From: Schmidtea polychroa
Lineage: Eukaryota
Direction: 5' to 3'
DNA: 64,000 bases
Assembly: GCA_044892525.1 (NCBI GenBank)
Contig: CM097885.1
Coordinates: 23,810,001-23,874,000, forward strand
The translations under genes and the position numbers were made by a program. Numbering within the stretch: position 1 is the first letter of the stretch; each line of letters starts with the position of its first letter. Positions 33,826-60,900 of the stretch are shown here, piece after piece. The notes under the pieces were generated by a model. The model was not told where the DNA came from and made no database searches. It worked only from the letters and a program-made list of their open reading frames with translations.

Positions 33826-36240
33826 AATTGCAATAACTTAGGGGAAATAGTCAGTATTCATTATTAGTTGATTGAATGTGTTGGAATATTATTGGTGTTA
33901 GTATTGAATCCTCGTGCTCTTCTTCAATTTTCAAAATAAGGCTCAAAACATTTTATTAAAGAGGTTTGATACAATAATTTTTATTTAAAATAAAAAAACC
34001 AATCAATAAAAATGCATCCAATTATCAAGAAATTAATTAAATTTATCTTAGAACTAACTTTAAATTTTTAAATATTCATTCAATCCACATGAAATTCACG
34101 AAAATGATAAAAATCCTCAAAAACCATCAACTCTAAAAAAAATTACTAATGAATAGACACCAAAATTTATCTAAATAATCTTTCAAATTATTTCATTAAA
34201 ATTGAAGACAACACGCTGGAATTGATCATTACATTCAATTAAAATTAACTAAATCAAGATATGAACTTTGATAAAAAAATATTTTTGTAAAATGATTAGA
34301 ATTAACACTAGTGTTCTTTAAATCTAATTAACTTAGTCATAATTTTCTTTAATTATTACTGCGAATTCTTATCATCTTTCAAAATTTATTAATTAATTTA
34401 AAATTGCATCCTTTAATTTTCTTAATTTTAAATTTTAGCATTTAATTTACCAAAAATAGCATTTAATTACTTTTTTTTAAATATATCTCTTATTATTATT
34501 TCATAAAAAATCTATTTAAATTTATCTTTTAAAATTATTTCAAAATATTTTGCATCTCAAATTGTCAATTCTCATCGTTGATAGTAAATTGTTGACAATA
34601 AAATATTACTGTAATTTTAAAATTTTTACTTTAATTTACTTTTTTTAAAAGTATTACTATAATTTAAAAATTTTAATTTTAATTTAATTCTAGACCATTG
34701 ATTACTCAAGTATAAAATTTTAAACCTTAATTTACCTATTTATCATTAATTTACTTTAATTTAACCCTTTATTTAATTAATTTAGCCCTTGTTTACCAAA
34801 TATAGAAGTTTAAAATATAGACCATTGATTACTTTAATTTAAAAATGTATCCCATAATTTACATAATTTCCATCTAAAATTTATTCATAAAAATATTTAT
34901 ATAAAATTGTCATAGAAAAATATTTTATAAGTTTTCATTTTAAAAATTCATTTCTCATCAGATGATAGTTATTCAAAATATCTGACAATAAATTATTAAT
35001 TTAATTTAAAATTTTACATTAATTTACTTTACTTTAAAATTTTGAACTTAATTACTTTAATTTAAAACTTAACCTTAATTCACCAATTTAATTTAATTTA
35101 CTTAATTTTAAAATTTGGTCCTTAAATTACTAATTTGAACCCTTAATTTACTTAAGTTTAAAAATTTAGAACTTAATAACTCAGTAATTGGTCTCAATAA
35201 GAATTAATTCTCAATGAGAATTAAGAAAAAGGATATTAAAGAAAGAAAGAAATGTATTTTCGGGAAGAAGATTGCAAAGTTCCAGGAGATTGACAAAGAC
35301 TATCTTATAGTCGAAAATGTTTTTTCATTAAATACATTATTTGCAGCTAATGGTTTAAATTATTACTTTATTGTTTTAAATGATATTTTGAAAATAATAA
35401 TAATAACAGTAATAATAATAGTAATAAGATCTTTGTTCTATTGGAGTCCTGTTTTATGAGTCATTGTCTTTGTTCTAAAAAAGATGAGTCATCGATGAGT
35501 CATTGTCTTTGGTAAAGTGTCTATATGTCTTTCTTTAAAAATGATGAGTCATTGACTTTGTTTTGGAGCGTTTAACTAGTACTTTATATTGTTTTATAAG
35601 TCTTGCCCTTTTATTTTGCATTCCTGTGGATGCTGCTGTGTGAGTTGTATGACTTAAATTGACAAAAAATTGATTTGAACTGCTATATTCCAAATTATCA
35701 GTCGACAAACCTACAGCGCTTCACCATGCGCAGTGCTTGTGTAGAAATATATTTACCATTTCAAGAGACCAATCGAAATCAAGGAAAGAATATAATATAT
35801 ATATATATATATATATATATATATATATATATATATATATATATATATATATATATATATATATATATGGTCTTTTAAAACTTAAATATATTGTACAAAC
35901 ACATTTTAAACGTTAATGTTGACTTATTTAACAAAGACATAATAAAACTAAAATTATTAAATTAAAGATGCAATAATTAAACCAAAATACATGACATACA
36001 GAATACATTAGATATTTGATGGACAAATCTACTAGAAAATTATAATTATTCATTGATGTAGTAATCAACAAAAAAACAAAATAGAGAAAAATTCAATAAT
36101 TAAAATAAAACAAGAGTGCAAATAAAATTATATATTGGATTTTTTGGACCGACTTTTATTTTAGATTTTTAAGGAAGGTGGAGGAAATTGCTACCACAGT
36201 TGTGATTTCTAGTCACTATTCTAGTCTGCGGTACAGAAAT

Positions 36241-36529
36241 CACCTGATTTGTATGATGTTCGGTGGTTTATGGATGTCCCAGGTAATTTAAACCCCTTTG
36301 CTTTAACTGTTTCCTTACTGCCTAAAAGACTATAACATTTCGGGCGTAAGAAAACCCATTCAGAATATCCTAATCCATTTCACTCATCTTTAAACTTCCC
36401 GATGACTGAGTCAAGGTTTCTATTATACAAGGGGTGTGTTGGATCATAGTTCGATGTAACCAATAAATTATCTGAGATCGTCTGAGGTAATAATATTGAT
36501 AATTTAAGATTTTTAATTTCGAGAAATGC
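36241..36529 (-). pseudogene. Polinton-type PolB C-terminal fragment (unit 1)
   Basis: LLPQTISDNLLVTSNYDPTHPLYNRNLDSVIGKFKDE*NGLGYSEWVFLRPKCYSLLGSKETVKAKG is homologous to window 885-1110. Confidence 0.88.
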
Positions 36530-57900: not shown

Positions 57901-60900
57901 AGTATTACTATAATTTAAAAATTTTAATTTAATTCTAGACCTTTGAATACTCAAGTAAAAAAATTTTTAAACCTAAATTTACCTATTTATCATTAATTTA
58001 CTTTAATTTAACCCTTGTTTACCAAATATAGAAGTTTAAAATATAGACCATTGATTACTTTAATTTAAAAATGTATCCCTTAATTTACATTATTTCCATC
58101 TAAAATTTATTCATAAAAATATTTATATAAAATTGTCATAGAAAAATATTTTATAAAAGTTTTCATTTTAAATTTTCATTTCTCATCAGATGATAGTTAT
58201 TCAAAATATCTGACAATAAATTATTAATTTAATTTAAAATTTTACATTAATTTACTTTACTTTAAAATTTTGAACTAAATTACTTTAATTTAAAACTTAA
58301 CCTTAATTCACCTATTTATTTTAATTTACTTAATTTTAAAATTTGGTCCTTAAATTACTAATTTGAACCCATATTTTACTTAAGTTTAAAAATTTAGAAC
58401 TTAATTTAAAATTTTCGACCATAATTAACCTATTTATCATTAATTTACTTTAGTTTAATTTTTGATCCTTGATTAATTCAATATAAAAATTTAGACCCTT
58501 AATTTAATTTAATTGAAAATATTAGACCTTAATTTGCTTATTTATCCTTAATTTATTTAAGTTTAAAAATATAGACTTTTTTAAATTTACTTTAATTTAA
58601 AATTTAACCATTAATTTACAAATTGAAAATTTTAGACCTTAATTTACTTAATTGAAAATTTTAGACCATAATTTTCATGTAAAAATGTCATTGAAAAAAT
58701 TTATATTGTTAGATAATTTTAAATATATTGTTAGATAATTTTTAAATATATTTCTAGATAATTTTAAATATATTTTAGAATAACTCAGTAATTGGTCTCA
58801 ATAAGAATTAATTCTCAATGAGAATTAAGAAAAAGGAAATAAAAGAAAGAAAGAAATGTATTTTCGGGAAGAAGATTGCAAAGTTCCAGGAGATTGACAA
58901 AGACTATCTTATAGTCGAAAATGTTTTTTCATTAAATACATTATTTACAGCTAAAGGTTTAAATTATCACTTTATTGTTTTAAATAATATTTTGAAAATA
59001 ATAATAATAATAGTAATAATAACAATAATATTAATAATAATAATAATAATAGTAATAAGATCTTTGTTCTAGTGGAGTCCTGTTTTATGAGTCTGTTTCA
59101 AAAAATAGATGATGAATCGTTTGACGAGTCTTTGTTCTAAAAATAAATGATGCATTGTCTTTGTTCTAAAAAGGATAAGTCATCGATGAGTCATACAGAA
59201 AGGGGGATGTGCAAAAAAATAAAACAGTACCCACATTTAAACGATGAGTCATCGATAAGTCATTGTCTTTGGTAAAGTGTCAGCATTGGAATCGACATGG
59301 AGTTCCAATATTCATTATTATATTTAATATTACTGTTTATATTTCACATTTGTCTGTTATTGAATGAATGTAGAAAGCCTTCTTCCCTATATAGATGACT
59401 TGTTAATGAATTCCTAATTAGAAAGTTTACTCATGTCAAGAGGCTATAATTACTTTGTGAAATAGGCAAAGATTTTTTCTTCATGTTAACATAAAATTAG
59501 ATTTCAACAACTGATTAATGACAAATTGCAAATTATTGACTATTTTCAATTAATATAATCTTATTACATTTCATTAATAAATGTTTTAAGGCAGTACGAA
59601 TATTAGTAATCAATTAAAAGTTGAGCAGATATTTTGTGAATAAAAATTAGAATTCTATAGTCTTTCGTTGTTATTTTAAAATATTTGAATTATTTTCAAT
59701 TTAACGTGGTGTTTTAAAGTGTTTGAGTTGATAATTATTCATTTTTGACGAAAATCAATATTTTTGTTAAATTTAGACTTAGACAGAAAATGTTTTTCTA
59801 CTGATTGTAATTAAATATATTTTTGAATTTAATACATATAAAAGGTTAATTTATTTAAAAAGCATTTGATAAAATACAATGAAGAATATTTAGTTGATTG
59901 TAAATACCTGGTTGTAAGTCTTTAGTATCTGGTTGTTTGAGAGTTACTTAGTATTTGGTATCTGGTACCTAGTTAGTTGGTTGTTGTTGATTGTTAGTAA
60001 ATAATCTTTGAAACTAATCTGTTAGTAGCTAGTTGTTTGTTGGTTGTTAATACATGGTAGCAGCTATCTGGTTGTAAGTTCTTAGTTGTAAGTATTTGGT
60101 ACTTATTTGTTAGTACCTAGTTAAAAATCCTTAGCAGCTGATAGTTGGTATTTATTATCTGAATGTAAATAATACCTAGATAGTACATATTTGTTAGTAT
60201 TTTGGTTGTAGGTATCTGGTTGAATTTTAGATTTTGACAAGAATTTAAGAAATATTCTTCTTCCTGAATTAAGAAAAGCTTATTATAAGCAAATATATAA
60301 TGATGAATAAATTTTGTATCTTTATCACTGTCTTGTTAATTTTTATTTATTATTATAGTTATTTTTTATGTGTTGTTAATAAAGTCTTTAGTTGTTAAGT
60401 ATTTGATTGAGTTATTATTATTATTATTATTATTATTATAATTATTATTTGCGAAATTTGCATCTAAATTTTCTTTAAAAATTATTTCATAAAAACTTTC
60501 ATTAAAGATTTTCATTTCTCAAAAGCTGCCTATCATTCAAACTTTTTGATTATAAAATTAAAATTATTACTTTAATTAACTTATTTAAAAATTTACTTTA
60601 ATTTAAAATTTTTATTTATTTTACTTAATTTAAAAATATTACTTAAATTTTTAAAATCTTTGAACAATGATTACTTTTTTTAAAAATAAAAGCCCATAAT
60701 TTAATTTGATCAATTTTTAGACTCTTAATTTACTTAAAATTAAATTATTCTCATCATATTTCAAAGTTTATTACTAGTTTTTAAAATTTAGCCCTTCATT
60801 TACTTATTTACCAAATATAACCCTTGTTTACTAATATTTTTAGTAGAAGAAATTAATTGAAATTGATCTTTGAAATTAATTTAATAAAAATTTGTATTAA

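Follow-up and report, generated by a model that had tools for sequence, protein, structure and literature searches.

An amplified, intronless TFIIB paralog family in Schmidtea polychroa that is likely part of a second set of basal transcription factors

The stretch of DNA analysed here, a window of 64,000 nucleotides from Schmidtea polychroa (assembly GCA_044892525.1, contig CM097885.1; G000:C1:23.81-23.874 Mb), lies in an AT-rich genome of 781 Mb and carries three intact, intronless copies of a divergent paralog of the transcription factor TFIIB. These copies are members of a multi-copy family, and a second set of basal transcription factors, probably a germline one, likely includes this intronless TFIIB. 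In the reading that we favour, to which we give a probability of roughly 0.55, the family supplies a variant pre-initiation complex (PIC), probably a gonadal one, with its RNA polymerase II (Pol II) adaptor, the TBP-side interface is remodelled, and the local copies of the family likely arose by unequal crossing-over.

The three open reading frames (ORFs) each run from ATG to stop over 301 amino acids on the minus strand, at spacings of 7907 and 7897 bp. Both the intact frames and a tandem amplification with a period of about 7.9 kb had been described in a first-pass annotation made from the letters alone, and the coordinates bear this out:

38274-39179, minus strand: intronless TFIIB paralog copy 1 (E4, T154), from its ORF and Pfam
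46181-47086, minus strand: intronless TFIIB paralog copy 2 (D4, N154), from its ORF and a fold model
54078-54983, minus strand: intronless TFIIB paralog copy 3 (coding sequence identical to copy 2), from its ORF
~33973-59186: tandem array of ~3.2 units of ~7.9 kb, forming the left margin of a ~360-kb duplication-rich region

The coding sequences of copies 2 and 3 show no difference, and copy 1 departs from them by E4D, T154N and two synonymous changes, at codons 64 and 262; the annotation had reported two amino-acid differences with at least two silent changes, and there are exactly two of the latter. The window protein matches the Pfam zinc ribbon Zn_Ribbon_TF (PF08271, E-value 1.5e-10, 40.9 bits with a cut-off of 29) and, over its first repeat only, TFIIB (PF00382, 7.8e-9). 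It carries the ribbon motif, as CKYH...CSAC, and a B-reader, SEWRTF...RVG, and is of the Pol II type, with an E-value of 1e-33 to human TFIIB versus 1.6e-4 to yeast BRF1. Set against a conventional animal-type TFIIB (P0003), the ribbon and reader are 57% identical, the linker 26%, cyclin repeat 1 27% and cyclin repeat 2 15%, in agreement with the earlier description of a conserved ribbon and B-reader beside strongly diverged cyclin repeats.

The changes in the cyclin repeats bear on the interface with TBP. The AlphaFold model of the window protein (predicted local distance difference test, pLDDT, of 70, with the core mostly at 79-91) superposes on TFIIB/TFB cores with template-modelling (TM) scores of 0.76-0.87 by target length (0.77-0.87 for 1c9b, 1d3u and 7zwc) and root-mean-square deviations of 2.0-3.1 Å, and predicts that the two-cyclin fold is intact in its TBP-binding arrangement. 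Numbered as in human TFIIB, from the alignment to the best PDB match, the window protein differs from the human protein by R169V, T176L, F177P, K188E, G153K, G192K and F195L, the equivalents of R169 and T176 being V165 and L172. The canonical TFIIB gene of the genome (L083) retains R169, T176, F177 and K188. All four lineage members (window protein, P0001, P0002 and P0042) have R169 replaced, by V/L/I/I, and K188 replaced by E; T176 is retained in P0002 and P0042. The lack of the canonical Arg169/Thr176 pair marks the window protein, as judged from its residues, as a TFIIB-family paralog and no canonical TFIIB. The basic surface is maintained (P174, R175, K178, E179, K189 and K196 are kept, and there are new lysines at 153 and 192), and the C-terminal end is about 14 residues short. 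The helix of cyclin repeat 2 that serves as reader of the upstream TFIIB recognition element is changed in the window protein and likewise in the canonical gene. TBP E284/E286 are contacted by an Arg and a Thr of TFIIB that are described as highly conserved (PMC7221094), and R169E and R169E/K188E in human TFIIB lower TBP binding (PMC6004067).

The first-pass annotation had suggested a non-canonical TBP as the partner of this protein, and the simplest version of that idea fails on the TBPs found in the genome. Six host loci were recognized among the candidates scored (150 of 2998 and 150 of 390), a sample in which a very divergent TBP could be missed:

C1:41.96, 42.00, 195.75 and 244.96 Mb; C2:132.29 and 182.64 Mb: host TBP loci (L033-L039)

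Their TFIIB-binding loops read YEPELF, YEPESF, YDPEQF, LELELF, YEPELF and YEPEIF; they are altered in places, never charge-reversed, and keep acidic residues at two stirrup positions. The altered loop LELELF belongs to an intronless TBP (L036) and is the same in its 90% relative.

A protein search of the genome gave 29 matches among 32 scored candidates, made up of 13 full-length intact copies, 4 fragments and 12 exon matches from six intron-bearing loci. The ORF is open in 13/13 full-length copies, seven of which lie at C1 23.85-24.19 Mb and six at C3 38.2-39.1 Mb; the C3 copies match at 89-95%. The genome thereby holds six TFIIB types: the canonical gene L083, the divergent types L084, L085, L086/L087 and L088, and the intronless family. 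With the intron-bearing types spliced by coordinates, four tested intron positions are common to five paralog genes and absent from the intronless family, and three of the four are confirmed by RNA in the canonical gene, the last intron of which (L083:7052 to G000:C3:131483583) is 3.5 kb long and of the GC-AG type. The tree groups the intronless family with the four divergent intron-bearing types (99/100); a grouping with canonical L083 was rejected (p-AU 0.005). Full-length relatives are P0001 at 82% and P0002 at 57%, with P0042 (E-value 7e-82) and P0043 more distant, and the window family, P0001, P0002 and P0042 form one clade (99); P0001 and P0002 carry the tree label 'intronless', which is no statement on their gene structure. 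Other records hold relatives of L085, L087 and L088 (P0057, P0047 and P0044, respectively). Missing parental-clade introns at the four tested positions are the mark of a retrogene, and the family is likely a retrocopy from the clade of divergent intron-bearing TFIIB paralogs, with a history that would have run from retroposition through a burst of change to constraint. At such an age, with relatives at 57% identity, a poly(A) remnant or target-site duplication would hardly be preserved. The C3 copies and the window unit share just ~1.1-1.8 kb around the gene, and therefore no common mobile element. A mobile-element-borne, viral or Polinton origin of the TFIIB was rejected on this short shared context and on the nesting of the gene among host paralogs in the tree.

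Copy number was assessed from runs that were all contig sets, so depth is rough. Run X1 (DNA) is nearly identical to the window and may have been the source of the assembly; its depth is 286-452 over the gene versus 42-49 at the single-copy canonical TFIIB; in run X5 (DNA, another study) it is 272-364 versus 29-45. The TFIIB paralog family is certainly multi-copy, at about 6-10 times single-copy depth, and the read-depth check that the annotation had proposed thus contradicts a single copy at the level of the family. An assembly artefact for the whole family was rejected on the depth in these two runs. In run X5 C3-type alleles were found at 16 listed sites and depth is 11 over a C1-type upstream piece, a hint of variation in the C1 cluster from strain to strain, although contigs drop minor variants.

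Comparison of C1 with C3 copies by a counting method gives a ratio of non-synonymous to synonymous substitution rates (dN/dS) of 0.25-0.37 for five of the six C3 copies (the sixth is weighed below). In an example pair, 15/207 synonymous versus 13/696 non-synonymous sites are changed (Fisher test, p=3e-4), and the second of the two pairs tested gives p=1e-3. Coding-sequence comparison of this kind shows purifying selection on the TFIIB paralog family. The annotation had argued for selection from the stops in the transposon relics of the same unit, an argument that is weak alone, since the gene may have arrived in the unit later than the relics; its conclusion stands on the direct estimate. For expression, run X7 proved to be RNA: three GT-AG introns of canonical TFIIB are spliced and unique intron stretches have depth 0. 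An ungapped 876-nt contig with a depth of 36.9 lies over the TFIIB paralog ORF, and repeat bins with a DNA depth of 62,000-97,000 have depth 0 in this run, so that DNA carry-over does not explain the contig. The alleles of this transcript are C3-type; the proposed expression check is therefore positive for the family and not for the window's own copies. In run X10 the variant gene's words are absent, but canonical TFIIB has a depth of just 28 there, which makes the run uninformative, and run X9 (depth 3.9) was not used.

The family is accompanied by paralogs of several other PIC subunits, a pattern of the stalk-eyed fly type. Our searches covered TBP, TFIIB, TFIIF-alpha and -beta, TFIIE-alpha and -beta, TFIIA-gamma and TAF4. 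They returned 6 TBPs, 6 types of TFIIB, 3 types of TFIIF-beta, 3 TFIIF-alpha, 2 types of TFIIE-alpha, 2 TFIIA-gamma and 2 TAF4; the TFIIE-beta family search of the genome gave no match and was uninformative. An intronless TFIIF-beta, which exists besides two intron-bearing types, has 17 copies with all ORFs intact and dN/dS of 0.22-0.29, and is the sole long ORF of a 3006-bp unit. TFIIE-alpha has one short-exon locus besides an intronless pair, and two host TBPs are intronless, one of them with a 90% relative. The companion genes, and the promoter element discussed below, are as follows (the last four lines in window coordinates):

C2:150254300-150292681 (L178-L182): TFIIF-beta tandem array, 13 units of 3006 bp at 99.8-100% identity
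C2:151.10-151.34 Mb (L184-L187): four dispersed TFIIF-beta copies
C4:32.34-32.42 Mb (L174-L176): cluster of three long TFIIF-alpha ORFs
C4:47.93 and 48.88 Mb (L192, L193): intronless TFIIE-alpha, two near-identical copies
30612-31994, minus strand: intronless divergent TAF4-like ORF of 460 amino acids, 6.3 kb from TFIIB copy 1
47162-47170, minus strand: ACCAATGAA (CCAAT box), ~83 nt upstream of the TFIIB copy 2 ATG
~39255-39263 and ~55059-55067, minus strand: the same CCAAT box upstream of TFIIB copies 1 and 3
32068-32076, minus strand: ACCAATGAA box, ~81 nt upstream of the TAF4-like ATG

The TAF4-like ORF is 29% identical over 141 amino acids to the genome's TAF4 (E-value 2e-13); its Pfam TAF4 match (E-value 0.024) is under the cut-off, and a word-indexed search returned no homolog at E<=0.001. 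A partial TAF4-like copy lies at G000:C1:23685140-23685718. Four of eight intronless genes (TFIIB, TAF4-like, TFIIF-beta and TFIIE-alpha) have CCAATG upstream of their inferred ATG, at a distance of 50-94 nt, and three of them have the full ACCAATGAA form. It occurs in 0/8 comparison promoters, and 0/500 shuffles scored equally high. Planarians need NF-YB in the germline, NF-YB2 being somatic (PMC4909293). A second motif, TTGTTT, was seen no more than 150 nt from the inferred ATG in 8/8 comparison promoters (0/500 shuffles), often as TTGTTTAAA; regions with TTGTTT or TTGTTTAAA lie upstream of L083-L088, L174, L188, L189 and several intronless genes, and TTGTTT may be a motif of core promoters throughout this genome.

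Gonad expression data exist for Schmidtea mediterranea, whose transcript ids are not mappable to a given TFIIB paralog and for which the testis rows may be incomplete. Among the rows listed, at least one TFIIB-like transcript is ovary-enriched 6.9-fold and at least one testis-enriched 3.8-fold (PMC8994625 supplement). The same supplement gives ovary enrichment of 214-fold for a TBPL-like and 345-fold for a TAF7-like transcript, 4.8-fold for TAF4, 2.4-fold for TFIIE-alpha and about 2.4-fold for two TFIIF-alpha transcripts, and testis enrichment of 7.6-fold for an RPB1 transcript; where ovary enrichment is modest, it may reflect ordinary factors that are loaded maternally. TFIIB is absent from the main text of that paper (PMC8994625). 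A TFIIB contig is 5.7-fold under-represented in a table that matches the CPEB1(RNAi) list by size (PMC5544531 supplement; RNAi, RNA interference).

Taken together, these observations suggest a mechanism in which retroposition from the divergent TFIIB clade gave rise to the intronless family. The Zn ribbon and B-reader would still dock on Pol II, while the core, rebuilt yet basic as before, would have a weaker hold on canonical TBP, and a TBP paralog or other variant factors would recruit the protein through an interface that has been remodelled; CCAAT/NF-Y input may switch the factor set on in germ cells. We give selection for extra dosage about even odds. In its most far-reaching form the proposal would be of a second planarian Pol II initiation machine, retrogene-encoded and co-regulated through CCAAT/NF-Y, with a TFIIB made orthogonal by lacking the Arg-TBP-stirrup contact, and with dosage selection driving the joint amplification, on separate chromosomes, of TFIIB to 13 copies and TFIIF-beta to 17; in this full form we consider it doubtful.

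A number of points weigh against the favoured reading. The family transcript comes from one RNA run, the S. mediterranea ids are unassigned to paralogs, and 21% of the transcripts in the gonad table are gonad-enriched (PMC8994625). Run X7 holds no transcript of the C1-type (window) allele, and its strain may lack C1-type copies. The sixth C3 copy (L013) has a dN/dS of about 0.95. The CCAAT motif was noticed by eye ahead of the test, with ATG positions inferred, and CCAATG is absent in four of the eight intronless genes (both TBPs and both complete TFIIF-alpha). The count of 17 TFIIF-beta copies comes from the assembly, not from depth, and in the C1 region the TFIIB gene block is less amplified (7 copies) than the neighbouring transposon debris (9-25). 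On the structural side, the fold model is moderate (pLDDT 70, from an alignment of 7 sequences), and a compensating charge change was found in no TBP paralog among the six host TBPs recognized in the candidates scored. Finally, the family has a long stem in the tree (0.64-2.0 by sampling and model), and long-branch attraction may affect its placement.

The organization of the array is central to the next two alternatives. Its elements, given for the middle unit where they recur, are:

41432-43231: AT-rich high-copy block, 11-25 copies per 440 kb; likely substrate of unequal crossing-over
43232-47650: low-copy block (PolB relic, ATT tracts, TFIIB and upstream region), 6-7 copies per 440 kb in most tiles
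43974-44325, minus strand: stop-bearing C-terminal relic of a Polinton-type PolB, with counterparts near 36320-36553 and 51997-52230
47649-48080, minus strand: Gag-like relic with two stops; equivalents at 39739-40158 and 55543-55962
47651-49339, minus strand: truncated high-copy repeat upstream of, and co-oriented with, TFIIB; carries the Gag-like relic
33222-33567, minus strand: piece left of the far-upstream region of TFIIB (98%), lacking both CCAAT box and gene

Three gene-bearing segments are bracketed by four copies of the AT-rich block, an arrangement that fits unequal crossing-over between these flanking high-copy blocks as the likely source of the array. Between units 41432-49339 and 49340-57240 there are 0 substitutions and just 4 indels, each 2-6 bp long. 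With 89 substitutions and 22 gaps, the first unit stands apart from them, and the array is therefore not one clean triplication. The stops that had been reported in the relics are present, and both relics match ORFs of known type, the PolB relic at 64% identity over 89 amino acids to a PF03175-bearing Polinton ORF (E-value 1e-32) and the Gag-like relic at 30% identity to a Gag-like ORF upstream of an LTR-type (long terminal repeat) pol (E-value 4e-15); neither has a Pfam match of its own. Two further gene-less remnants of the far-upstream region lie at C1 23.947 and 23.967 Mb. A promoter shared by TFIIB and the TAF4-like ORF through duplication of the piece at 33222-33567 was considered and rejected, the piece being without a CCAAT box and occurring gene-less as well. 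A 2984-nt RNA contig (run X7 record 18, depth 81) ends in a copy of the far-upstream element (window 47229-47521), which suggests that this element is also part of another transcript.

The ~360-kb C1 tract at 23.84-24.20 Mb consists of nested tandem and inverted duplications and is dense with transposon and Polinton pieces. When the unit is tiled over 440 kb, the block 43232-47431 is found at 6-7 copies in 13/14 tiles (the exception is one microsatellite tile, with 3 copies), and the flanking tiles, which are transposon parts, at 9-25 copies. The amplification of TFIIB that the annotation had proposed is thus real at the level of the family, by depth, but locally it is not specific to TFIIB. 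This could mean that the family is functional and the window copies are neutral, maybe silent, passengers of a duplication-prone region, with a copy number that is meaningless. Many units are gene-less, the C1 copies are 0-4 nt apart and too young for decay, and the RNA alleles are C3-type only, as are those of run X5 at the 16 listed sites, with its low depth on the C1-type upstream piece. We nevertheless regard this explanation as unlikely: the synonymous excess between the C1 lineage and the C3 copies speaks for constraint after their split, all window copies have kept the CCAAT box, and the functionally linked TFIIF-beta, the sole long ORF of its 3-kb unit, is independently amplified 17-fold.

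A narrower doubt concerns the duplication that separates copies 2 and 3, which might be an assembly artefact, the window really holding two copies. Identity over 7.9 kb, with 0 substitutions and four 2-6-bp indels, is what such an artefact would look like. With 0 substitutions between units 2 and 3, depth does not separate three copies from two in the window: the single-copy depth implied by run X1 is 42-49 for the assembled window, rises to 47-56 when one window unit is taken out and to 51-66 when two are, and was measured at 42-49. The as-assembled model fits at least equally well on all six contigs, the removal of two units is disfavoured, and recent near-identical units are common in the C1 region. 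We assign the artefact a low probability, and the other 12 copies are unaffected by it.

A different alternative takes the protein to be a TBP-uncoupled adaptor or decoy, which binds Pol II through ribbon and reader but no TBP; some other DNA-bound factor would then bring it in, or else it would titrate Pol II off canonical promoters. It would account for the replacement of R169 and K188 across all four lineage members, at positions where engineered human mutants reduce TBP binding (PMC6004067), for the loss in the window protein of both conserved TBP contacts (PMC7221094), for the acidic loop kept by all host TBPs found and for the low identity of cyclin repeat 2. The two-cyclin geometry is, however, predicted to be intact, the surface stays basic, T176 persists in two of the four members, and one lost salt bridge would weaken binding and need not abolish it; we find this explanation improbable. 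Least plausible, with only a slim chance in our estimate, is a host-transposon conflict that would drive the amplification, with germ cells transcribing through a variant TFIIB that the mini-TBPs of the very abundant Polintons cannot recruit: such mini-TBPs are numerous (PF00352, 2998 candidates, 150/150 scored above cut-off), 19/20 viewed high-copy loci inter-align and the translated ones adjoin a packaging-type ATPase ORF, they keep an acidic YEPE[LI]F loop which would need R169, and the TFIIB array sits among Polinton pieces, but the low dN/dS speaks against an ongoing protein-level arms race, and canonical TFIIB is ~20-30 times deeper than the variant in the one RNA run (contig depth being a poor measure).

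Other features were recorded beside these. Polinton-like elements (L043-L062 and many other sites) carry the mini-TBP head-to-head with the packaging-type ATPase, with 2998 candidates in the genome. The window itself holds an intact 641-aa hAT transposase with zf-BED and dimerisation domains (22096-24021, minus strand), a Polinton-type, zinc-finger-led ORF of 624 aa (62105-63979, plus strand), with a start that resembles a 1444-aa ORF located at C1:24.07 Mb, and a Polinton-type PF03175 fragment (86-703, plus strand). Two further ORFs, at 2208-3107 (plus strand, 299 aa) and 29071-29889 (plus strand, 272 aa), have no Pfam match.

Compared with canonical TFIIB (human GTF2B; 1c9b, 7nvu), which is its best PDB match by sequence (E-value 1e-33) and by fold, the window protein shares the Zn ribbon, B-reader, linker and two cyclin folds. 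It differs by R169V, T176L, F177P, K188E, G153K and F195L, by a cyclin repeat 2 at 15% identity, by about 14 fewer C-terminal residues, and by being intronless and multi-copy. In large double-stranded DNA viruses with orthogonal TBP-TFIIB pairs, the TFIIB Arg that contacts TBP C.L3.2 is likewise changed (PMC7221094). There the TBP position co-varies, whereas here no matching host TBP change was found and the gene derives from the host. Plant TFIIB-related proteins (Arabidopsis TFIIB1/2 and BRP1/2/4/5) also form an expanded family with mostly reproductive roles (PMC11319285), but in old, diverse subfamilies rather than a recent ampliconic animal retrogene family. Drosophila tTAFs and vertebrate TRF2/TBPL1, TAF4b and ALF are core-factor paralogs that drive germ-cell programmes (PMC4909293, PMC4824122). 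These are variants of TFIID or TFIIA that work with an ordinary TFIIB, and in S. polychroa TFIIB, TFIIF and TFIIE are duplicated too. TBPL2 is likewise a gonad-specific variant of a general transcription factor.

The closest likeness is to the stalk-eyed flies (Diopsidae), in which nearly all of the basal machinery has undergone a lineage-specific expansion, with four extra, fast-evolving TFIIB paralogs per species and extra TFIIF, TFIIE, TBP and TAF, and for which an alternative transcription system has been proposed (PMC4824122). In most other eukaryotes TFIIB, TFIIF and TFIIE are single-copy and strongly conserved, and the function of the fly paralogs is described as unknown (PMC4824122). 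The five fly TFIIB genes come from transcriptomes, with testicular expression shown (PMC4824122), whereas the S. polychroa set is known from genes and comprises six TFIIB types, one of them intronless at 13 near-identical copies, and a 17-copy TFIIF-beta. The variant PIC is likely gonadal and convergent with that of the flies, and, judging from the tree, its origin was presumably independent. No description of planarian TFIIB paralogs was found in the open-access literature, searched at listing level. New elements here are the ampliconic copy number, the parallel amplification of TFIIF-beta, the shared CCAAT box and the conserved loss of R169. The natural change of R169 to an aliphatic residue together with K188E, kept in four diverged members, is similar to what was engineered in the TBP-binding mutants and speaks for a rewiring of the interface between TFIIB and TBP. 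If true, the amplification of two partner subunits in parallel would be a rare instance of core machinery co-evolving in dosage, and with a parallel factor set in planarians, where RNAi and gonad biology are routine, a cell-type-specific, fully paralogous PIC becomes testable.

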